Below are positions 28,923 to 38,487 of a stretch of DNA of 64,000 nucleotides, in pieces (the stretch's first letter is position 1; every line of letters starts with the position of its first letter). Location: positions 128,001 to 192,000 of the forward strand of contig JAVZNC010000002.1 in the NCBI GenBank assembly GCA_038882955.1, written 5' to 3'. The stretch comes from Candidatus Bathyarchaeia archaeon. GTDB lineage: Archaea; Thermoproteota; Bathyarchaeia; Bathyarchaeales; Bathycorpusculaceae. A program made the position numbers and the translations under genes. Under the pieces are notes generated by a model. That model was not told the DNA's origin and did not search any database. It worked only from the letters and a program-made list of their open reading frames with translations.

Positions 28923-29519
28923 GTGTTGAAATTGACTAAAGAAAATCTAATTGGTATAGACTTGGCTGGAAAGACAAAAAATCCGACTGGAATTGCCCTA
29001 TGGAAGCAAAAAACCATAAAGGCGTGCCTTGCCCATACAGATGGTGAAATTCTAACGTGTGTCAAAAGCTTTAAGCCGTCGATTGTAGCAATAGACGCGC
29101 CCCTTAAGCTCCCAAAAGTTGGAACCTTGCGTAAGACTGACAGGGAAATGATAAAAATGGGATACCACGTTTTCCCCCCAATTCTTCCAGCTATGAAGGC
29201 TTTAACCTTAAGAGCAATTAAGTTAAATGAGCTAATAAAGAAGGAAGGCTTCAAAACGTTGGAAGTGCATCCAACATCAACCAGAAAAGCTTTAGGCATG
29301 CCGACAAAAGATTGGGGAAAAATTCAAGTCATCCTAAAAAAGATAGGTTTAAAGGGAGACACTCAAGTGCGTACTCTAACGCCTCACGAAATAGACGCCA
29401 TAACAGCAGCCTTAACAGCGTATCTCCACATTAGAGGTGAAACGGAAAACATCGGAGACGAAGAAGAAGGTTTCATAAGTGTTCCAAAAAGGCAAGATTG
29501 GAGAAAACTTAGGCTATGA
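28923..29519 (+). CDS. DUF429 RNase-H-fold putative nuclease
   Basis: GIDLA, AIDAPL, EVHP and HEIDA motifs. Confidence 0.85.
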   Translation: MLKLTKENLIGIDLAGKTKNPTGIALWKQKTIKACLAHTDGEILTCVKSFKPSIVAIDAPLKLPKVGTLRKTDREMIKMGYHVFPPILPAMKALTLRAIKLNELIKKEGFKTLEVHPTSTRKALGMPTKDWGKIQVILKKIGLKGDTQVRTLTPHEIDAITAALTAYLHIRGETENIGDEEEGFISVPKRQDWRKLRL

Positions 29520-31078
29520 GCGAAACAGAAAAACTACAAAAGGCCGTAGAGTTAACAATTGCCGCAGGATACCAACTAAACAAGGACGCGTTCGAATTCC
29601 TGAAATCAATAACTTCGACAGAAGATCCAACAGAAATAATCGGTAAGGCGCTGAAAAAGGTGAACGCGTTAAAGGAAAAACCCTTGTTTATCGAGAAAAG
29701 CTTTCTAGAAAACTTGTTAAAGGAAGAAGCCCTTGCAAAGGAACACCCCCCGCCAGCACCATTAATAGAAAAACATGTGGAAGACTTACAAGAGCCACGT
29801 CTAACAGAGGCAAAAAAGCCATATCGCCCCCTCGCAAAAGAATTTGAACCAGACATTAAGGTTCTTGAAGACCCAACGGAGAAGCTAAGTTCAAGCGGGA
29901 CTTTGGAAGATTATCTGGAGTATTTTAGGGATAGATTTAGGCGCATGGAGAAACTTTTGAGACAGAGAATAGACGTTAGAGGCGCATTGTCAATCATTGA
30001 CGCCTTAAAGGCTCCAGCAAACACGAAACTCAAAGTAATCTGCATGATAACTGAAAAAAGGGAATTACAACAAAAGGTACTTTTAACGGTTGAGGATCTA
30101 AGGGCTTCCGTAACAGTTCTGGTGCCCCAAAATGCCAAGAAAGAAGTCTTAGAAAAGGCGCGTTCAGTTTTACCTGACCAAGTTGTCTGTTTGGATGTGA
30201 CAAAAACGAGGAGCAGTTTGCTAATAGTAGAGGACATAATCTTGCCAGACGTAGCATCAAAAGTTCCAGGTAAGGCACCTCTACCAGTTTACGCCGTGCT
30301 TACATCTGACATGCATGTTGGAAGTGCAAAGTTTCAACGTGAAGCATTTAACAATTTCATATTGTGGCTTAATGGGAAATATGGAGATGAGAGACTACGC
30401 GATATTGCAAGCCACGTTAAATATGTGATAATTGCAGGCGATATTGTCGACGGGATAGGCGTTTATCCCAACCAGCTGAAAGAATTGACAATTAAGAACA
30501 TTTATGGACAATACGAAAAGGCTGCACAGTTCATCGAGCAAATACCGGACTACATAGAAGTGGTGATAATACCCGGAAACCACGACGCCCCAAGAAAAGC
30601 GTTACCCCAACCAGCAATCTCTAATGCCTTTCTGGAAACACTACAAACATCAAGAAAAGTGCACTCGCTTGGAAACCCATGCCGCGTCAGCCTCCACAAT
30701 GTGGAACTACTACTGTACCATGGACGAAGCTTGGATGACATAACCTCAACCGTCCCAGGAGCCAACATAAACCACCCGGAAAAGGCAATGACTTTACTTT
30801 TGCAATCACGCCATTTAGCGCCAATATATGGTGGAAAAACCCCATTAGCACCAGAAACCAGAGACTTTCTTGTCATAGAGCATGTACCAGACATTTTCCA
30901 CGCTGGGCATGTTCACATTTTAGGATATGCTAACTATCGTGGAGTGCTCGTCGTAAATTCTGGGGGTTGGCAGGAGCAGACGAATTACATGCGCAGAATG
31001 GGAGTAGTTCCAACACCTGGAAAAGTTCCCGTAGTCAACCTTCAAACTCTCGAAGTTAGCGTTCTATCATTCAGCTAA
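29516..31078 (+). CDS. polB: DNA polymerase D small (exonuclease) subunit DP1
   Basis: SDMHVGS, GDIVDG, PGNHD, YHG, HLAP and GHVH motifs. Confidence 0.96.
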   Translation: MSETEKLQKAVELTIAAGYQLNKDAFEFLKSITSTEDPTEIIGKALKKVNALKEKPLFIEKSFLENLLKEEALAKEHPPPAPLIEKHVEDLQEPRLTEAKKPYRPLAKEFEPDIKVLEDPTEKLSSSGTLEDYLEYFRDRFRRMEKLLRQRIDVRGALSIIDALKAPANTKLKVICMITEKRELQQKVLLTVEDLRASVTVLVPQNAKKEVLEKARSVLPDQVVCLDVTKTRSSLLIVEDIILPDVASKVPGKAPLPVYAVLTSDMHVGSAKFQREAFNNFILWLNGKYGDERLRDIASHVKYVIIAGDIVDGIGVYPNQLKELTIKNIYGQYEKAAQFIEQIPDYIEVVIIPGNHDAPRKALPQPAISNAFLETLQTSRKVHSLGNPCRVSLHNVELLLYHGRSLDDITSTVPGANINHPEKAMTLLLQSRHLAPIYGGKTPLAPETRDFLVIEHVPDIFHAGHVHILGYANYRGVLVVNSGGWQEQTNYMRRMGVVPTPGKVPVVNLQTLEVSVLSFS

Positions 31079-31638
31079 GAAATGCCCCTGGCAATAAGCC
31101 TTGCGACGCGCAATGGTTCTGGTATCCGCCCAAAAAAAGAGAAGGCTTGTATAAGTGCTTGCGCCCATTCGACTGTTTCGCCTATAGTCTCTATGTAAAC
31201 TGGCTCGGCATCCTCAATCACCTGCACCTTGTGAACTTCACCAAGTTTTTCGAATATGCTCCATCGTATTTCCCAATCCTTAAAATGCCTTTTAAGTGCG
31301 CGTTTCACGGCCACGTTATCCGGCTCTGCTCTAGAGATCACCACCACGGGTTTCCCATATCTCTCATGTATTACTGTCGGGTCTATGATGTTGAAGCCTG
31401 CGAAAGAAACTCCTGAAAGGAGAACAGCTCCAAAACTCCATCCTTTAACCATATTTAATAGAACTTCAGTTGCGTCCATCCCATCAACGGTGACGTTAGT
31501 AGTGTGCACGTCTTCAATTTTTGTTTCTAGAAACAGCACGGCTACAAGTTTGGTTTTTCTGGTAATGCCCTTTTTGAAACTTCCATCTTCAACTCCTACC
31601 ACGGGAATTCTTCGAAAGGCATTTTGGCGCATAATCAA
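31075..31638 (-). CDS. DUF99 endonuclease-V-like protein
   Basis: GVEDG, VDGMDAT, GFNIID and PEPLRVARLIA motifs. Confidence 0.88.
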   Translation of the reverse strand: MIMRQNAFRRIPVVGVEDGSFKKGITRKTKLVAVLFLETKIEDVHTTNVTVDGMDATEVLLNMVKGWSFGAVLLSGVSFAGFNIIDPTVIHERYGKPVVVISRAEPDNVAVKRALKRHFKDWEIRWSIFEKLGEVHKVQVIEDAEPVYIETIGETVEWAQALIQAFSFFGRIPEPLRVARLIARGIS

Positions 31639-32839
31639 TCAAACGCCCAAGCCTAACGTCATTACCAAACACGTCTCTAATAAGACTACGGGCTATTTCC
31701 AGCCTAATCTTTTTTGTGCGCCCATAACGCCCCATACTTATGACTTTCGCATTAAGCAGCCCCATGGCGTCAAGCTCGTTCACAAGTGTTCCTAAACGCC
31801 TCTGCGTCAAAGGTGCAACACCCAACTCTCCGCATAACTCTCCATAGACCTCGTAAATTTCGCCTGTAATGGTGCTACTAACACCCGCTCTGTCCAAATG
31901 ATACACACTTAAGACTACAAGCTTTGAATGCAAAGTCAAATCTTTCAGTGCTTCGACAACGCGGTTGTGTTCTATGTGCTTTTCAGCCTCCCGCACATGT
32001 TCTTCTGTAACAATAGAAGCACCAACACGTTCAGCAACCTCGCCAGAAACCCGCAGCAAATCTAACGCTCGTCTAGCATCACCATGCTCAGCAGCAGCTA
32101 ATGCAGCGCATAAGCTCAGCGCAGATTCAGACAAGGCGTTTTCGTTGAAAGCCATCTTGGCGCGCTCTAACAATATGTTCCTAAGTTCATTCGCGTCATA
32201 GGGCCTAAAAACAATCTCCTCTTCACTAAGCGAACTAAAAACACGCGGATCAAAAAATTCCTTAAGCCGTAGATCATTCGAAATACCAATCAAAGATAGC
32301 TTACTTTGCTGTAAAGTTTCATTTATCCTAGTTAATTCATATAGAAGCCCGTCTCCACGCGCTTTTATCAAAGCGTCTACCTCATCCAAAACCACTATAA
32401 AAATCAGCTGCGCCGTATCCAGCGCGGTTCGAAATCTGTCAAAAACTTCACCAACAGATAATCCTGTGAAAGGCACGTATGTTCCAATGCTTTGGCACAG
32501 ATTTGTGAAAACACGATATCCGGAGCCAGCCATCCGGCAATTTACATAACAAAACTTGACGGGTGCACCATACTCCTTCGCCTTAACTTCGAGGTGACTT
32601 AAAACATATTTTGTAACAGCAGTCTTTCCAGTCCCTGTTTTGCCGTAAATAAAAACGTTTGAACAACGTTCCTTTTTTAAGACAGGAGCCACTTTTTCGC
32701 CCAGTAGTCTAATTTGTTCCTCGCGATGTGGCAATCTGTTTGGCAAGTAATCATGCCGCAACACACTTCTATCTTTGAATATCTTCGCGTTGCCAATGAA
32801 GTTCGTGAATAACTCGTCAAGAATTTTTGTGTCACTCAT
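31589..32839 (-). CDS. cdc6: Orc1/Cdc6 replication initiator
   Basis: LPHRE, GKTGTGKT, LDEVD, GDARRALDLL and wHTH GRYGRT motifs. Confidence 0.97.
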   Translation of the reverse strand: MSDTKILDELFTNFIGNAKIFKDRSVLRHDYLPNRLPHREEQIRLLGEKVAPVLKKERCSNVFIYGKTGTGKTAVTKYVLSHLEVKAKEYGAPVKFCYVNCRMAGSGYRVFTNLCQSIGTYVPFTGLSVGEVFDRFRTALDTAQLIFIVVLDEVDALIKARGDGLLYELTRINETLQQSKLSLIGISNDLRLKEFFDPRVFSSLSEEEIVFRPYDANELRNILLERAKMAFNENALSESALSLCAALAAAEHGDARRALDLLRVSGEVAERVGASIVTEEHVREAEKHIEHNRVVEALKDLTLHSKLVVLSVYHLDRAGVSSTITGEIYEVYGELCGELGVAPLTQRRLGTLVNELDAMGLLNAKVISMGRYGRTKKIRLEIARSLIRDVFGNDVRLGRLIDYAPKCLSKNSRGRS

Positions 32840-33561
32840 CTTGGAGCCTTCTCCAATATTTCAAAGGATATGCCTACTCTTCCTTTGGAGTAATAAATGT
32901 CTCACTACAGAAAACTAAATTCAAATTTTAACAAACTTTTAAAGTCAACATAAAAAGATGTTTCAAGTCACACCCCACAATTTCCTCTGGAATCTTTTTC
33001 ACCCTTAAGGGTAATGTTGATTTCTTCTTTAAAATGAAGAAATATACTCTGGAAGGTAAAGAATAAAAGTACAATTATAAAACTTGTAGTTAAAAAAGTT
33101 AGATTTGTTGATACCTTTGCTTCTAGCAACTAGCAGGTGTAAAAGTGCGGTTTTCCAATGGAAAAATAGGGGTGCGCTAGAATAAGATTAAACAATCTTA
33201 ATGTTTGTTCCCGTTCCTACTTTGTTGCTCTTTGCAACTTTTCACCATTTTTAATTGCTAGAAACCCTTCACAGATTGTGATACTTATGTGAAGTTTAAG
33301 AGAAAATGCTTCTTTTTTCTGCTTAATCTGGAAAAATTGCCGTTTTCATGCGATTTAACTGTGAACTTGGCACCCCTGCCTTTCTACTGGAGAATTATAC
33401 TTAGTTCTTTTCCTGTTAGGAAATCAAAAATTAAGAAACTGTGAACTTTGTAAAGGTTGAAAATTTGAATTTTTTCCTTTTTTTCGGTTTTTAAGCGCTA
33501 TTTTACGCCTTTTATGTGCAATTTTTCACCATAACACCTATAACTTGTTAACTGCAAAGTT
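32840..33561. other. Replication origin (oriC) with three ORB elements and AT-rich unwinding region
   Basis: ORBs TTCCAGAGGAAATTGTGGGGTG (32971-32992, -), TTCCAATGGAAAAATAGGGGTG (33153-33174, +), CTCCAGTAGAAAGGCAGGGGTG (33371-33392, -); 720-bp AT-rich gap upstream of cdc6. Confidence 0.9.
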
Positions 33562-34017
33562 GTGAATACACCTAGGTGCACAATGTTAATGCCTGCCCGA
33601 AAGATGCGAGTTGAGCTATTCGACGAAGACGGTAATCGCTATACAATATCATTCGAAGGTCAAATTACTAGAGAGAAGGCTCTTCGCCTTCTAGACCTAG
33701 TAGAACTCTTGGGCGGTGTGCCAACTAGCAGAGGCAACGAAACGAACAGGGGCGTTTTGGAAAATGATTTTTCTAAATACGCTAAGGTACGCGTTGTTGT
33801 TCAGAAGCACTTCCCGCTGGTGTGGTTTACATCACATGACGTTCAACTGGCTTACGAACAAGAATTTAAGGAGCCTATAGGGCTTAGCACAGTGGCAACA
33901 TACCTTTCCAGAATGTCAAGTAAGGGCTTACTCCTGCGGGCGGGGGCTTCAAGAACCCTAAAGTACAAGTTGGCAACCAGCTATCCGAAGGCAATTATTG
34001 AAAAGCAAACACCTTAA
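33562..34017 (+). CDS. Origin-adjacent winged-helix DNA-binding protein
   Basis: C-terminal wHTH (FTSHDV..IGLSTVATYLSRM..GLL..YKL); start may be ATG 33583 or 33589. Confidence 0.8.
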   Translation: MNTPRCTMLMPARKMRVELFDEDGNRYTISFEGQITREKALRLLDLVELLGGVPTSRGNETNRGVLENDFSKYAKVRVVVQKHFPLVWFTSHDVQLAYEQEFKEPIGLSTVATYLSRMSSKGLLLRAGASRTLKYKLATSYPKAIIEKQTP

Positions 34018-34019
34018 AT

Positions 34020-34748
34020 TTATGATTGCTGCTGGGCGGGCTCGCTTTCCGTCCGCTTTAACAGCTTTCGCATCTCCTCTTTTACACTGTATTTAAATGG
34101 AATTCTACTAGTATCTCTGTCCAAATAGCCTTCCTCGTAGAGTTTCTTCATCAACCGCGCGGTGTGCTCCCTACTAAGCTTAATTCTCTCCTTTATTTCT
34201 GGCGCGGTTTTAGGGCCTTCAGAAGCCAGCATGTCCAGAACTGACACCTCCGTTTCAGTAAGCGGCGCCAAAGCCTTCTCCCGCTTTATAGGAATTGCTG
34301 CTTCAATTTTAGCATCTGAAATGACTGCAGGATGCTTTACTCGTTCCTCAACCATAGAAAGGCGCGCAGCCAAATCCCTTTGCATAGTCATGCTTTCCTG
34401 CAATGCTTTGGCTATTTCATCCACTTTCCTTGTAGTAACTTCTTTTTCACTTACTAATGAGCCGACTCTAGCCTCTAAAGACTCAATTTTCTTGCAAGCA
34501 TCCTCAGCTGCCTTCTTTGCGCTGTCACCTTTCGAGGCTGCGGCATCAACTTTATATGCAATTAAACTAACCCTTTCCGCTTCCTGCTTCAATTGCCTGT
34601 TAAAACTAAAAACTATGTCACCAACAACCGCTTTTGCACTTTCATATTCCTTTCGCACCTTCTGAAGCTGCCTATAATAGGCATAACAAACGGCAACGGT
34701 TAACGCTGCTAAGATTATGGTAAACACCCAAACTTCCACATCAACCAC
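34020..34748 (-). CDS. Membrane-anchored coiled-coil protein with C-terminal MarR-like wHTH
   Basis: N-terminal TM helix, ~110-aa heptad-like region, then LTETE..TAPEI..LSREHTARLMKKLYEEGYL. Confidence 0.85.
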   Translation of the reverse strand: MVDVEVWVFTIILAALTVAVCYAYYRQLQKVRKEYESAKAVVGDIVFSFNRQLKQEAERVSLIAYKVDAAASKGDSAKKAAEDACKKIESLEARVGSLVSEKEVTTRKVDEIAKALQESMTMQRDLAARLSMVEERVKHPAVISDAKIEAAIPIKREKALAPLTETEVSVLDMLASEGPKTAPEIKERIKLSREHTARLMKKLYEEGYLDRDTSRIPFKYSVKEEMRKLLKRTESEPAQQQS

Positions 34749-34777
34749 TTCCGTGATTCACTTGTGATTTACCTACA

Positions 34778-35004
34778 GACATCACACATCACAGTTTACA
34801 TGTAAAGGATTTAAAGCTTATGTTATTTCTCAGCGTAAAATAACCTCATGACATCACACATCACAAAAATGCGTAAACAGATGGCATGTTCAATGTTAAG
34901 GTAACGCCTTAATTTTGAACGTTTTTCCGATTTAAAGCCGATTTTTGCCAGCAGAAAAGTTAAGATAAAGGAGCATATAAAACTTTCATGTGACTTGTGA
35001 TGTC
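34778..35004. repeat. GACATCACACATCACA repeats (two exact direct copies, one inverted 14/16 copy)
   Basis: 34778-34793, 34850-34865 and inverted 34989-35004; another exact copy at 36897-36912. Confidence 0.8.
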
Positions 35005-35470
35005 ACATATCGCTTGCCGAAGTATCTGATAGCTTTTTTAAGCTTGTTTCGAGTTCTTCTCTGATAATTTTTATGATTTTTAGGTTTTCACTTGTGTTTG
35101 CTATGCTTTTATGGGCCTCTACATATTCTTTTAACCTGTTTGCTATTTCGATGTAGGGGTCGAGAGTTGTACTTTCAAAAACGCCTAAGTATCCTAAAAG
35201 CAGTATGGTGTATATGGACTTTATGACGTTTCCTTTGGCCTGTTTTAAAGTTCTGTTGAATGCACCGCGGCTTATTTTCGCCTTTGTTAACCTCAATCTG
35301 GCTTTTTCATCGTAATTTAGGGTTTTTCCTGATATATTCTCGGCTAAAATGTCTATAAGTAACGTTTCAAGCTGCGTTTTCGTTAAGTGGCTATTTTTGT
35401 AGAGTAATTCTGCTATGGGGTCATTTAAAGAGTGTGTTAACCATAAGTGAATGTTTTCTTTCAGCTTCAA
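35003..35470 (-). CDS. Hypothetical protein with HTH-like segment
   Basis: SHLTKTQLE...ISRGAFNRTLKQAK pattern; upstream of the TM-wHTH gene on the same strand. Confidence 0.75.
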   Translation of the reverse strand: MKLKENIHLWLTHSLNDPIAELLYKNSHLTKTQLETLLIDILAENISGKTLNYDEKARLRLTKAKISRGAFNRTLKQAKGNVIKSIYTILLLGYLGVFESTTLDPYIEIANRLKEYVEAHKSIANTSENLKIIKIIREELETSLKKLSDTSASDM

Positions 35471-35612
35471 ACTTTTTCAACCGCCGACCTTTTATATGAA
35501 TACAGATTTGTATACAAGGTCCCTTTAAACCTTGCTTAAAACATACGTTTCACATTTTTTGCAACGCAAATATTTTATTCTCAGGAGACCAGTGCATAAT
35601 AAGGGAAACTCG

Positions 35613-36785
35613 TTGACTTCTCAATTTAAGCCCGCAGAACGCCTAAAAAACGTAAAACCTTCTGGAATTCGCCGATTTTTCGCTTTAACCCAAGAAATGC
35701 CAGACGCGATCAACCTCAGCGTAGGGGAACCAGACTTTTCCCCTCCGCAACACGCGATAGAAATGGGTTTGAAAGCGGCGAAAGGGGGGAAAACACATTA
35801 CACTCCTACTAATGGCATCCCAGAGTTGCGCGAGGCATTAGCCAAAAAAGCCTTCCGTGAATACGGGCTTAACTATGACCCTAACTCAGAAATATTAATT
35901 ACATCAGGAGGGATTGAAGCCATTTTTCTGGCGCTTTTCGGCTTCGTAAATCCTGGTGATGAAGTTTTGATTCCAGATCCAGGTTTTGTGTGCTACGAGC
36001 CCTGCGTTCGCTTGGCGGGGGGTGTTCCGGTTTCTGTTCCTTTAGTGGAGGAAAATGGATTCAAGCCTTCTGTTGATAATGTGATGTCACTTATCACGGA
36101 TAGGTCACGTGTGATTATTCTGAACTATCCTAACAATCCTACTGGGGCAGCCCTTTCCTTTGATGATGCGGCGGTGTTGGCGAAGATTGCTGTTGAGCGT
36201 GACCTTATTGTGATTTCTGATGAGGTTTATGAAAAAATACTCTATGATGGGACTAAACACTATTGCCTTGCAACCTTCCCTGGGATGCGTGAACGCACAT
36301 TGGTTGTTAATTCCTTTTCCAAGACTTACGCGATGACAGGGCTGCGTATTGGCTTCGTTTACGGTCCTAAAGAGCTAATTTCGCCTCTGTGGCTGATACA
36401 CCAGCATACAATTGCATGCATTAATAGTATCACTCAGTATGTTGCGTTGGCTGCGCTGGAGGGACCGCAAGACTTTGTAGAGGAGATGGTTGTGGAGTTT
36501 GATAGGAGAAGGCAAATGGTTTGTAAGAGGCTTAATGAGATGGGAAGACTTAACTGCTCACTTCCAAAAGGCGCTTTTTACGTTTTCCCTAGCATCAAAA
36601 GTTTTGGTGTGCCTTCAGAACAGTTTGCAGAGTACCTTGCAAGACAAGCGCGTGTACTCACTGTTCCAGGATCTTCTTTCGGGCGTTACGGTGAGGGATA
36701 CATAAGAATTTCTTATGCAGCAGCGTATGAACAATTAGAAGAAGCAATGGATAGAATAGAGAAGGCAATTAGGAAACTGCAATAA
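35613..36785 (+). CDS. PLP-dependent class I/II (aspartate-type) aminotransferase
   Basis: GEPDF, PNNPTG, SDEVY and SFSKTYAMTGLRIG motifs; start set at TTG 35613. Confidence 0.93.
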   Translation: MTSQFKPAERLKNVKPSGIRRFFALTQEMPDAINLSVGEPDFSPPQHAIEMGLKAAKGGKTHYTPTNGIPELREALAKKAFREYGLNYDPNSEILITSGGIEAIFLALFGFVNPGDEVLIPDPGFVCYEPCVRLAGGVPVSVPLVEENGFKPSVDNVMSLITDRSRVIILNYPNNPTGAALSFDDAAVLAKIAVERDLIVISDEVYEKILYDGTKHYCLATFPGMRERTLVVNSFSKTYAMTGLRIGFVYGPKELISPLWLIHQHTIACINSITQYVALAALEGPQDFVEEMVVEFDRRRQMVCKRLNEMGRLNCSLPKGAFYVFPSIKSFGVPSEQFAEYLARQARVLTVPGSSFGRYGEGYIRISYAAAYEQLEEAMDRIEKAIRKLQ

Positions 36786-36794
36786 GCGTTAAAA

Positions 36795-37628
36795 CTACAA
36801 GCGCTTAGCGCTTTCCTTCAGTTCATCAAAAAGTTCTGGACGTAAATCTTTAAGTGTAGGCACAAATACTTCCACAGGTTTAACGTCACCGTAATTGACA
36901 TCACACATCACAAGGTCTTCTTCATCGTACTTCGCTTGAGTGAGCACCTTACCATTTGGTCCAACAAGTCTACTTCCTCCCCAGAATTGTAGTCCATCTT
37001 CTATGCCGACGAGATTTACATATGCCAAGAGCACAGCGTTTTCCATTGCCCTAGCAACGGTCAACGTTTCGAAAAAGGTTTTCCTAACTGCCGGCGAAGC
37101 TGATATGCAAACTATCAAGTGGGCACCCTTAAGGCGTGTGAGCCTGCTTAATTCTGGAAAGAAAATGTCATAGCAAATTATTAGCCCAACCTTCCCAAGA
37201 TTTGTGGCGAGCGCCACCGCCTCATAGCCTGGTCTAAAATATCTTTTTTCCTCAAAGACGCTGTGCGTTGGGAGGTGCATCTTGCGATATTTGCCAACAA
37301 AACCTTCGGGGCCTACGAGCACTGCTGAATTGTAGATTGTTGCCTTTGTTTTTTCGCTTAGCTCTGGCATGCCAAAGACTACGTATGCTCCCGCCTTTTT
37401 TGCCATTTTTTCGATAGCCTTTGTTGATGGACCAGGTATTGTTTCTGCTAAATTGTATATTTCATCGCGAACCACGTAGCCAGTTAGCGAAAGCTCTGGG
37501 AAAATTATAAGGTCCGCCTTCTTCTTTGCAGCATTTGTTATAATTTTTTCCATTTTTCTCATGTTTTTTTCCTTATCTGCCCGGTAGCAGCTTATTTGGG
37601 CGAGCGCAACCTTGAAATTCTCCTTCAT
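36795..37628 (-). CDS. Carbon-nitrogen hydrolase (nitrilase family)
   Basis: Catalytic triad FPE, YRK and ICYD. Confidence 0.92.
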   Translation of the reverse strand: MKENFKVALAQISCYRADKEKNMRKMEKIITNAAKKKADLIIFPELSLTGYVVRDEIYNLAETIPGPSTKAIEKMAKKAGAYVVFGMPELSEKTKATIYNSAVLVGPEGFVGKYRKMHLPTHSVFEEKRYFRPGYEAVALATNLGKVGLIICYDIFFPELSRLTRLKGAHLIVCISASPAVRKTFFETLTVARAMENAVLLAYVNLVGIEDGLQFWGGSRLVGPNGKVLTQAKYDEEDLVMCDVNYGDVKPVEVFVPTLKDLRPELFDELKESAKRL

Positions 37629-37644
37629 TTTTTCATCTCCAAAT

Positions 37645-38487
37645 TTAACACACATCCCTTGGGAATCTGAAATCTGCGCCAACAGTCCTATATCCAATTT
37701 TCGCCGTCAATGGCATCCGCCTTTTGTGTTCAGTGGCAAGCCATCTGCGCTTAATTTTTTCGACAAAATCCTCCCTTATGCCTAACTGATTTGCGATTTC
37801 TCTAGTTTCCATGAAATGCTCCAAGCCATAAAGAATCAAATCCAAGACTTCATACTTTATTCCCAACTCCTCTTCTGCAAGCTGTCCCTGCCAGAGTCCC
37901 GGCGATGAAGGTTTTGCTACGATTTCTTCTGGAACACCTATATGCCGTGCAAGTTTTCGAACTTGCGTCTTGTATAAGTCCATGATTGGCGATATGTCTG
38001 CTGCTGCGTCTCCCCACTTTGTAAAGTAGCCCATCATTGTTTCTGACTTGTCTGAACTTCCACATACAAGCATGTTAAGCTTGTTTGCGTAATAGTAGAT
38101 ATAAATCATCCTGGCGCGCGCTTTCATGTTACCCTTGCAGAGATTATCTTGCGCATCAAAGCTTGGTATTGAGCTGTAAAGGGCTTTTAAGACTGGTGTA
38201 ATGTCGATTTTCTCCATTTTTAGGCCGAACTTTTTGGCGACGGCTTCTGCGTGCTTGATATCCTTAACGTTGTATGTTTCTTTTTCTGGCAGCATAAGCC
38301 CAAAAACATTTTTTCCGCCTATTGCGAGTGCAGATAGCGCCGCTACTGTACAACTGTCAATGCCTCCTGATAACCCTAGAACTATGCCATTCACACCAGA
38401 TTTTTTCACATAATCTCTTATGAAGCGTTTTATTTTTGCTTCAACTTCGTTCCAGTCCAATTCAAGAATGTCCAAAGTTAACCTCAA
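37645..38487 (-). CDS. nadE: NAD+ synthetase
   Basis: GLSGGIDS, NMKARAR, GYFTKWGD and DLYKTQV motifs. Confidence 0.96.
   Translation of the reverse strand: MRLTLDILELDWNEVEAKIKRFIRDYVKKSGVNGIVLGLSGGIDSCTVAALSALAIGGKNVFGLMLPEKETYNVKDIKHAEAVAKKFGLKMEKIDITPVLKALYSSIPSFDAQDNLCKGNMKARARMIYIYYYANKLNMLVCGSSDKSETMMGYFTKWGDAAADISPIMDLYKTQVRKLARHIGVPEEIVAKPSSPGLWQGQLAEEELGIKYEVLDLILYGLEHFMETREIANQLGIREDFVEKIKRRWLATEHKRRMPLTAKIGYRTVGADFRFPRDVC

Follow-up and report, generated by a model that had tools for sequence, protein, structure and literature searches.

Beside the putative replication origin (oriC) in a 64,000-nt window of archaeal DNA (the whole stretch that was analysed, within which all positions are given), we identified a module of three small genes, p151, p242 and p155, and a set of repeated short DNA sites, which is self-contained, ancient and located next to oriC. 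The sites are arrays of a 5-bp half-site, GTGAY, which overlap the promoter of p242 and extend into neighbouring coding DNA, and p242 encodes a protein with an N-terminal transmembrane (TM) anchor, a heptad-patterned region and a C-terminal winged helix-turn-helix (wHTH) domain. We give about an even chance to the reading that p242 binds these arrays, represses its own gene and loops to the distal arrays, with origin-adjacent DNA pinned to the membrane as a by-product. The source assembly (G000) comprises 1,537,843 bases in 31 contigs. For comparison we used a family-level set of 22 loci (the window, contig C26 of the same assembly and 20 relatives, covering more than 20 genera and p242 identities down to 44%), a class-level set of 20 loci from other families and a phylum-level set of 20 loci from other classes; these related genomes are not independent samples.

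The repeat is most conspicuous as a 16-mer (GACATCACACATCACA on the plus strand) with exact copies at 34778–34793, 34850–34865 and 36897–36912 and an inverted copy with 14 of 16 identical positions at 34989–35004. These four places, which had been reported in an earlier, sequence-only reading of this DNA, are far in excess of expectation: at up to three mismatches there were four matches, compared with a mean of 0.36 in shuffled sequence, and none of 100 shuffles reached four. No other exact copy was present in the whole G000 assembly, and near-copies elsewhere formed one further group only, on contig C26. On the gene strand the 16-mer (TGTGATGTGTGATGTC) consists of two GTGAT half-sites 7 bp apart, and its core is the half-site GTGAY in 7- and 11-bp registers, the longest contiguous runs being two or three half-sites in the 7-bp register. 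The pattern TGTGAYNTGTGA had seven matches in G000 and TGTGAYRTCACA occurred in two places, all of them either at the locus or at its counterpart on C26. When half-site clusters were defined as dense at a minimum of 4 per 40 bp, 5 per 60 bp or 6 per 120 bp, G000 had them only at 34753 (the promoter) and 36081 of the window and at the C26 equivalents, and none appeared in a 400-kb Markov simulation. In five other genomes, 16 of the 18 matches to a 12-mer fell at the orthologous locus (3/3 in G003, 4/4 in G011, 3/3 in G016, 3/3 in G024 and 3/5 in G040), so that all matches were at the locus in four of the five; the reversed-pattern control gave one to three matches per genome. The sites are confined to a 2.2-kb stretch to one side of oriC, and no GTGAY cluster was seen in the spacer between Cdc6 and p151, which holds the origin, in any of the 42 loci scanned. 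For the enrichment of the motif around oriC, which the sequence-only reading had proposed to test, the outcome goes against the idea of that reading: in G000 there is no origin-wide spread, only the 2.2-kb stretch. Because the arrays occur only at the locus, there is neither a detectable regulon nor an origin-wide scatter of sites, and the possibility that the arrays mark a regulon was ruled out, as the assembly contains no further dense cluster outside the locus and C26. No Rfam match at E ≤ 1 was obtained over 32500–37500, and since the palindromic elements are self-complementary 10- and 12-mers without a loop, they fit dimeric DNA binding better than RNA hairpins.

Contig C26 (5871 bp) duplicates the block from the end of a hydrolase gene through a decayed aminotransferase spacer, p155, p242, p151, the origin spacer, Cdc6 and Endo_dU to PolD-small, with 53% identity to the window copy in p242 and 78% in Cdc6. 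A second origin of the same chromosome was considered for this contig and rejected, as every other genome has one copy. Given the single copy in other genomes, the 53% identity of p242, the absence of the aminotransferase, as in other genera, and a bin contamination of 6%, C26 probably stems from another genus and was binned together with the rest, and it was used only as an extra orthologue.

Three of the four 16-mer copies lie in the 254-bp spacer between p155 and p242, which, as it separates two minus-strand genes, is the promoter region of p242. Its elements were assigned by position and conservation rather than mapped: the TATA element (CTTTAAA on the gene strand; 34810–34816, minus strand) belongs to a conserved CATAAnCTTTAAAT block in the aligned spacers, and in 20 of the 22 loci this block (transcription factor B recognition element and TATA by position) is flanked by forward pairs GTGAYNNGTGAY. 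The proximal heptad pair (16-mer copy 1; 34778–34793, minus strand) covers the expected transcription start and begins 22–25 nt after TATA in 20/20 loci having both pairs, which is the usual position of the transcription start in archaea, while the upstream heptad pair (16-mer copy 2; 34850–34865, minus strand) is found 36–52 nt upstream of TATA. The two pairs sit exactly where an archaeal autorepressor would be expected to bind, and a pair on the start site combined with a pair upstream of TATA argues for autorepression. A third half-site pair, ATCAC-N6-ATCAC on the gene strand (34753–34768, minus strand), is located in the 5' untranslated region; a leader pair of the form RTCAC-N5-7-RTCAC was present in 16/22 loci, and in the Nitrosopumilaceae loci (family f38), where the p155–p242 spacer is filled with GTGAT half-sites, it takes the form ATCAC-N5-ATCAC. 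At the far end of the spacer, the distal site TGTGACATCACA-AG-TCACA (34989–35007, minus strand), a palindrome plus one heptad, overlaps the stop codon of p155 (35003–35005). A palindrome GTGAYRTCAC on the p155 stop codon, with RTCAC-NN-RTCAC directly after it, was found in all 22 loci; the distal site, which has a T-run behind it, was also flagged as a terminator-like hairpin.

The coding DNA upstream of p155 carries more arrays. The class I/II aminotransferase gene (AT; 35532–36785, plus strand) contains two of them: E1, GTGATGTCAC-TT-ATCAC-N6-GTCACGTGTGAT (36081–36115, plus strand), is a 35-bp element in codons 184–195 of the open reading frame (ORF) starting at 35532 and encodes V-M-S-L-I-T-D-R-S-R-V-I, and E2, GTGAC-N6-GTGAT, is at 36199–36214 (plus strand). 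Among the 15 AT-bearing loci, the half-sites of E1 were kept in 11–15 and those of E2 in 10 and 14. Half-sites had been noted previously at about 36080 and 33829; the former is real and part of the conserved E1 array, and the latter, in the coding sequence (CDS) of p151, was not conserved across the 22 loci at a cut-off of 60%. At the same threshold, no half-site was kept in the CDSs of NadE, the hydrolase, p155, p242, p151, Cdc6, Endo_dU or PolD-small. The codons underlying E1 and E2 are strongly fixed (V184 GTG 15/15, S186 TCA 12/15, I188 ATC 11/11, S192 TCA 15/15, R193 CGT 12/15, V194 GTG 13/13, R223 CGT 10/10 and V227 GTG 14/15). In a comparison of 1097 informative codon columns from the nine genes of the block, a top-codon share of at least 0.93 was reached by 22 columns, six of which fall in AT codons 184–227; as the columns were compared within one genome set, shared ancestry acts equally on all of them. 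In the seven loci without AT, the 490–650-bp spacer between the hydrolase and p155 is a decayed AT copy containing in-frame remnants such as VTSLITxxSRVI with stop codons between them. In all seven, the part of this pseudogene that is best preserved is E1, with its orientation unchanged, and the position of E2 is taken by GTGAT pairs spaced by 11 bp. The fixed synonymous codons and the survival in pseudogenes show that E1 is selected as DNA, independently of the encoded protein; protein conservation as its sole cause was ruled out on these two grounds.

The third exact 16-mer copy (36897–36912, minus strand) lies within the carbon-nitrogen hydrolase gene (36795–37697, minus strand; termed a nitrilase in the sequence-only reading), where it covers the codons for L-V-M-C-D-V. 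Conservation of this copy, which the sequence-only reading had made a test of its proposal, holds in part: the three loci of the same genus all retain it, with ATA in place of ATG in one of them, its core GTG-ANN-TGT-GAT was also found in three other genera (L034, L035 and L039), and it was absent from the other 14 loci having the region; L040 did not align here. All seven loci with V[MIT]CD use GTG-ANN-TGT-GAT, whereas the five loci with Cys but without Asp at this position encode Val by GTC or GTA and Cys mostly by TGC. In G003 and G011, the position is among the only 12-mer matches of the whole genome. We lean towards regarding the copy as a functional, younger and lineage-specific site that did not belong to the ancestral layout. 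Distant families have half-site clusters upstream of p155 inside the NadE CDS (L055:11030–11200, L060:10940–11110 and L070:3490–3680), and a shared composite RTCAC-N5-ATCAC-N6-GTCACGTGTGAY is found within a different gene, one that separates p155 from p242 (L054:4790–5010, L055:9190–9360 and L070:5230–5440), the reverse translation of which has, by eye, a DVIACDLHP-like motif. The module may repeatedly have placed arrays in the coding DNA of its neighbours.

The domain structure of p242 (34020–34748, minus strand) was assigned from Pfam and sequence. Its wHTH (residues 163–222) matched both MarR (PF01047, 32.9 bits, cut-off 24.6) and TrmB (PF01978, 29.6 bits, cut-off 25.6), the MarR profile being matched at positions 1–51 of 59, that is, over the wHTH part only. 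In the full-length MarR fold, N- and C-terminal helices around the wHTH make the dimer interface and the ligand pocket; the rest of p242 consists of the TM segment and the heptad stretch. The window protein has an N-terminal hydrophobic 19-mer with a Kyte-Doolittle value of 2.17 and a heptad a/d contrast over approximately residues 22–122, the latter obtained with a crude a/d-contrast script, which is not a coiled-coil predictor. Among the p242 orthologues, 31/31 have such a 19-mer (Kyte-Doolittle at least 1.84) and 30/31 show the heptad pattern over approximately residues 20–140 by the same script, in agreement with the earlier description of this protein as a TM anchor, a coiled coil and a C-terminal wHTH. 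Positive residues following the anchor suggest that the bulk of the protein is cytoplasmic. The recognition helix, R193-E194-H195-x-x-R198-x-x-K201, was invariant in 31 sequences including one from Nitrosopumilaceae, and it reads SREHTSRLMKKL in family f38. Of 41 relatives, 35 have a single p242 copy, and within the class the gene was found in 102 of 151 genomes. A two-copy homodimer prediction with residues 28–242 scored 0.24 (mark 0.42). Public records name homologues of p242 as a MarR family transcriptional regulator of Bathyarchaeia; otherwise, the name given to proteins of the module is hypothetical protein.

The origin was placed in the 723-bp spacer (68% A+T) between p151 and cdc6/orc1 (31589–32839, minus strand; Pfam Cdc6_C 1.2e-26, Cdc6_lid 1.3e-25 and AAA_22), which has the features of an archaeal origin of the origin recognition box (ORB) type. 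The putative oriC core (33153–33392) comprises an ORB-like TTCCAATGGAAA-N-GGGG at 33153–33172 and its inverted partner at 33373–33392, with about 200 bp between them, and the same dyad with its G-string, which we take to be of the ORB type from the consensus, was present in the Cdc6–p151 spacer of 12/21 loci. The order PolD-small, (Endo_dU), Cdc6, origin spacer, p151, p242, p155, (AT), hydrolase, NadE was found in all 20 family/order loci. Linkage of the triad with Cdc6, which the sequence-only reading had suggested checking across relatives, was seen in 19/20 family-level loci, the twentieth being cut at a contig end before Cdc6. At the class level, p155 was within the locus in 19/20 cases and Cdc6 was adjacent in 14/20; p151 was present in 12 of the 14 loci with Cdc6 and in none of the six without it, in which p242 abuts PolD-small. 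Five of the genomes with a Cdc6-less locus were inspected: four have only a 31–33% identical Cdc6 paralogue elsewhere and gave no p151 match, and the fifth carries Cdc6 and a p151 fragment on another contig. Thus, p151 goes with the orthologous Cdc6, and p242 and p155 form a pair that in most, though not all, cases stays with the origin. Across the phylum, the p155 profile matched 103 of 201 genomes, and 15 of the 20 loci from other classes have a clear p242 homologue. The linkage extends to Nitrosopumilaceae, where PolD-small, Cdc6, p151, p242 and p155 were found, arranged in this sequence, in L079–L081 (L082 is cut at the record end) and an exact-sequence look-up of the L081 p151 led to records named Nitrosopumilus. 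No ParA/MinD-type gene above the Pfam cut-off is present in the window, as had been stated before; PF01656 has seven matches in G000, the nearest of which (C2:64151) is about 98 kb away, and no ParA-type gene turned up in the conserved block of the 20+20+20 loci, which was searched with the nine block proteins only.

The sequence-only reading had described all three genes beside the origin as of the helix-turn-helix (HTH) type, which stands for the wHTH of p242 and, by prediction, for p151 and is weakly supported for p155. Alignment placed the conserved start of p151 (33589–34017, plus strand) at the ATG at 33589 and not at the GTG at 33562. Its AlphaFold2 model (mean predicted local distance difference test, pLDDT, 71.8) has an N-terminal beta-hairpin and helix, a disordered linker and a C-terminal winged helix, and the best match of the model was the DNA-binding domain of Fur (2o03_A, Z 10.2, root-mean-square deviation 2.9, 75 aligned residues); all Pfam matches of p151 were below cut-off. 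The putative promoter boxes of this gene (33357–33566, plus strand) comprise a direct repeat, AACTGTGAACTT at 33357 and 33437, and TGTTAAC-N8-TGTGAA at 33546–33566 near the start of p151; the box at 33357–33368 abuts the inverted ORB arm at 33373–33392. A box pair TGTGAA-N-TGTGAAC was conserved upstream of p151 in the family-level loci, as judged by eye from 22 aligned upstream regions; loose TGTGAAC-type patterns recur in the genome (5 and 7 matches). The TGTGAAC boxes and the p242 half-site have the core TGTGA in common, with A as the final letter in the boxes and T or C in the half-site.

For p155 (35003–35470, minus strand), no Pfam family was found. Its model (pLDDT 78.7) is all-helical, with residues 26–100 weakly resembling a LuxR-type, sigma-4-like DNA-binding domain (EsrB 7vim_A, Z 6.2, 64 aligned residues) and residues 100–155 forming a C-terminal helical hairpin. 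A wide structure search otherwise gave helical-hairpin matches only (Z ≤ 7), Foldseek found no PDB match at E ≤ 0.001, and the ESM Atlas returned 'hypothetical protein' clusters only plus a sub-threshold Sigma70_r4 lead (0.79). Profile searches against PDB sequences gave best E values of 0.004 for p155 and 0.018 for p151. No ribbon-helix-helix (RHH) fold was seen in the p155 and p151 models or among the Pfam matches, the N-terminal domain of p151 not having been searched on its own. The promoter of p155 carries a box of its own (GTATACAAATCTGTATTC on the gene strand; 35498–35515, minus strand), which is unique in the assembly except for C26 and is kept in the family-level loci and across the phylum; in L072 and L089 it occurs as a variant changed in both arms (GTTGACAAAAATGTCTAG). 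The box is an inverted repeat ATACA-N4-5-TGTAT right before the start and would fit either a dimer site or a 5' RNA hairpin. In mean top-codon share, p155 also exceeds the other eight genes (0.63 versus 0.48–0.55), its frozen codons including the rare-looking AGA (R58) and ATA (I66, I83 and I133) and a TTG start kept in 17/17 cases, which hints at an extra nucleotide-level or translational constraint.

Taken together, these data are consistent with the following mechanism. The N-terminal helix of p242 would reside in the membrane, with the heptad stalk reaching into the cytoplasm and the C-terminal winged helix contacting GTGAY, and the half-sites would be bound as pairs in the 7- or 11-bp register or as palindromes. 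Occupancy of the pairs flanking TATA, the proximal one of which lies on the transcription start, would repress p242 in a negative feedback. The arrays at the p155 stop codon, at E1 and E2 (1.1–1.4 kb upstream) and, in this genus, in the hydrolase gene would be bound by the same protein, cooperating through a loop of 0.2–2.1 kb that encloses p155 and its promoter, and p155 and p151 probably autoregulate likewise through their private boxes. As p242 is predicted to be membrane-bound and its only arrays are 1.3–3.5 kb from oriC, binding would hold origin-adjacent DNA at the membrane. p242 is the preferred candidate for the binder on three grounds: throughout the phylum neither its recognition helix nor the half-site varies, p155 has a divergent HTH, and the arrays persist in L062, whose genome (G085, 92% complete) gave no p151 match. 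The uniqueness of the arrays in the genome, their conservation, the selection acting on the one inside AT, the synteny and the domains of the proteins are shown by the data; the identity of the binder, repression, looping and membrane attachment are what we infer from sequence, and either feedback or attachment may be the selected function, a choice that sequence does not decide.

Several points weigh against this reading. It is by co-conservation only that the arrays would be assigned to p242, and p155 is an equally local candidate, given that its stop codon is invariably where the arrays begin and that more of them follow upstream of the gene. The mixture of direct (7 and 11 bp), inverted and everted half-sites would be unusual for a single dimeric wHTH protein. 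Far-upstream operators in coding DNA are likewise unusual for a simple archaeal autoregulator and fit a structural nucleoprotein complex as well as looping. Moreover, it is not obvious why a gene that regulates only itself should remain next to oriC throughout a phylum, and the coiled coil is proposed from the crude heptad script only.

RacA of Bacillus subtilis, an HTH and coiled-coil protein, links origin-proximal DNA to the cell envelope; it is soluble, reaches the pole via DivIVA, has sites spread over hundreds of kb and acts only during sporulation. p242 shares its HTH and coiled coil and differs in having its own membrane anchor and one private cluster of sites. The archaeal regulator ArnR, which controls archaellum genes, is membrane-bound through C-terminal membrane helices and has an N-terminal HTH. 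Both ArnR and, as predicted, p242 are membrane-anchored archaeal proteins acting at promoters; p242 would have the reverse topology with hardly any extracellular portion, and it differs further in its position adjacent to the origin and in that no target was detected beyond its own locus. The ParA/SegA-type Walker ATPase gene that adjoins the gene of the DNA binder in the ParABS, SegAB and AspA-ParBA systems has no counterpart at the p242 locus.

Another parallel in architecture is RicO of Staphylococcus aureus, a protein reported to anchor origins and to have a membrane helix in addition to a coiled coil and a DNA-binding domain (bioRxiv 10.64898/2026.03.06.710092). RicO and p242 have in common a sequence-specific DNA-binding domain, a coiled coil, a membrane element, origin-proximal sites and no need for a dedicated ParA (bioRxiv 10.64898/2026.03.06.710092). 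They are mirror images, RicO having an N-terminal DNA-binding domain and a C-terminal amphipathic helix and p242 an N-terminal hydrophobic anchor and a C-terminal wHTH, and the nine 18-bp ricS sites described there extend over about 700 kb, whereas all sites of the p242 locus lie within 2.2 kb and overlap the promoter of p242 itself. RicO is bacterial and p242 archaeal; origin-anchoring proteins of the RacA and RicO kind make up a class by function, not by homology. p242 has their combination of a DNA-binding domain, a coiled coil (by the crude script) and membrane or pole attachment in one protein and lacks their distribution of sites over the origin-proximal region. At the level of the DNA, the arrays resemble the parS heptads (5'-WATCACW-3') of omega, the ParB protein of plasmid pSM19035, which are reported to occur as direct and inverted repeats and to double as promoters (PMC2441792; PMC9499535). 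Both systems have a 7-bp repeat with an ATCAC core in both orientations and arrays that are operators, here putative ones, of the binder's own gene or operon; omega is described as binding cooperatively to at least two adjacent repeats, and the repeats of the p242 locus, where binding is putative, are likewise at least paired. They differ in that omega is an RHH protein working with the ParA ATPase delta, whereas no RHH fold was found in the p155 and p151 models and no ParA is nearby, and in that the reported omega arrays consist of 7–10 unspaced heptads, at least four contiguous ones being required, whereas the runs found here are pairs and triplets together with 11-bp and palindromic variants (PMC9499535). 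The shared ATCAC core is probably a coincidence. The haloarchaeal oapABC (ArvABC) genes are also adjacent to an origin, and their small GTPase and its partners are reported to drive vesicle formation (PMC10927574). Like the triad, they are a small conserved cluster by an archaeal origin for which a role in replication was first suspected from position; no DNA arrays are reported for oapABC, and the triad locus has them. We found no description of the triad or its repeats in the full-text literature, a search that did not cover supplements. Membrane-attached, sequence-specific DNA binders with private sites are a known kind, of which the triad and its repeats would be a variant.

The idea put forward in the sequence-only reading, that p242 and the arrays were selected as a centromere-like tether clamping oriC-proximal DNA to the membrane for positioning or segregation, seems to us rather unlikely. 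Autoregulation would then be a side effect of a centromere overlapping the promoter of its binder, as in plasmid partition systems. Parts of that idea have held up: the anchor and the DNA-binding domain are present in all 31 p242 orthologues (and the heptad stalk, by the crude script, in 30), each genome has one multi-cluster array at 1.3–3.5 kb from oriC, arrays in coding DNA are under synonymous constraint and outlive the gene, and the synteny with Cdc6/oriC and PolD-small reaches from Bathyarchaeia to Nitrosopumilaceae, and the omega/parS heptads and RicO would serve as precedents by analogy. It is opposed by the lack of a ParA/MinD-type gene within about 98 kb, by the sites, which are all found in 2.2 kb to one side of oriC and are missing from the Cdc6–p151 spacer, and by the six of 20 class-level loci in which p242 and p155 lie by PolD-small without Cdc6, four of the genomes having a distant paralogue only. 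In addition, the heptads form pairs or triplets and not the at least four contiguous repeats that omega is reported to need (PMC9499535), and the haloarchaeal Oap cluster, with its reported action in vesicle formation, illustrates that origin synteny alone can mislead (PMC10927574). The boldest form of this idea, an ancient, ParA-free chromosome-anchoring device of Bathyarchaeia and Nitrososphaeria with a private GTGAY-heptad centromere by oriC that matters enough to be carried in adjacent genes by frozen codons and to outlast those genes, in which p151 is wired to the origin and p155 to the anchor and each new origin is pinned to the membrane, we consider unlikely. It is doubtful, and somewhat less credible again, that the arrays are sites of p155 or of a p155–p242 complex, with p242 as a membrane sink or anti-factor for p155. 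Every array set does begin at the p155 stop codon (22/22), arrays occur 350–700 bp upstream of p155 whatever gene is there (AT, its pseudogene, or NadE in L055, L060 and L070), an array abuts p155 even where p242 is 2.5–6.7 kb away (L063 and L064), and the modelled C-terminal hairpin of p155 could pair with the p242 stalk. However, p155 has its own, distinct palindromic promoter box, its HTH diverges in Nitrosopumilaceae (E 1e-9 to 1e-10) while GTGAT and the p242 recognition helix do not, and the four phylum-level loci that have p155 and lack p242 (L072, L076, L084 and L088) have no half-site cluster, a weak point, as p242 was not searched for elsewhere in those genomes.

We regard as very unlikely a replication-linked switch in which the triad senses or controls initiation, with p151 acting on the TGTGAAC boxes and p242 sequestering new origin DNA at the membrane or reading the early rise of gene dosage to twofold. 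The p151 box abutting an ORB arm, the co-occurrence of p151 with the orthologous Cdc6 (12/14 versus 0/6, and no match in the four genomes without the orthologue) and the presence of PolD-small and the Endo_dU nuclease in the block would be in line with such a switch; the origin spacer holds no GTGAY array, the TGTGAAC-type patterns have other matches in the genome, and the timing part is speculation. Highly improbable, finally, is an origin of the sites as by-products, the 36897 copy being a coding coincidence, the distal site a p155 terminator hairpin and the arrays RNA-level elements. The 36897 copy does encode L-V-M-C-D-V and is restricted to one genus and, partially, three further genera, and the distal site has the terminator-like score and T-run mentioned above. 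Yet an exact 16-mer within 2.1 kb of two other copies is expected by chance at about 1e-6 (4^-16 × 2 strands × 2 kb), the codon usage at this position differs between loci with and without Asp, the palindromes of 10 and 12 nt are loopless, E1 has been retained in coding and non-coding contexts alike, and Rfam gave no match.

To our knowledge, chromosome positioning and segregation in archaea outside Sulfolobales and haloarchaea are largely unknown. If p242 and its sites were an anchoring device, they would bear on origin positioning and segregation in archaea without known segregation machinery, and the module offers a concrete candidate of three small proteins and about ten short DNA sites, present both in the cultured ammonia-oxidising Nitrosopumilus and in uncultured Bathyarchaeia. 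If it were only a self-regulating circuit, it would still show that membrane-anchored transcription factors with private operators have a long history and a wide distribution in Thermoproteota. Independently of what the module does, the locus offers a clear natural case of a putative protein-binding array in a CDS that is held by synonymous-site selection and outlives its host gene, which makes it useful for the study of overlapping codes and for the annotation of 'intergenic' relics.

Several further features of the locus were noted. On the other side of the origin, PolD-small (29516–31078), the Endo_dU nuclease ORF (31075–31638; Pfam 5.3e-50), which is encoded on the same strand as cdc6 and shares 50 nt with its 3' end, and cdc6 form a compact replication/repair block. 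Eight of the 20 family-level loci (L034, L035 (4454–7037), L036, L038, L040, L043, L046 and L050) have a 2.6-kb insert between p151 and p242, which encodes a 351-aa protein without a Pfam family and a 519-aa HerA-type ATPase (DUF87, 3.4e-11); the two may be a NurA/HerA-like pair, the NurA part being putative. In the distant loci L054, L058, L063, L064, L074, L075 and L083, a gene identified by eye as an XRE-type HTH-CBS gene lies directly upstream of p242 with almost no spacer, and the half-site array is upstream of this gene, with which p242 may form an operon in those loci. In AT, codons 28, 35 and 45 (35613–35666; TTG, GCA and GGA), near the divergent p155 promoter, are also fully fixed.

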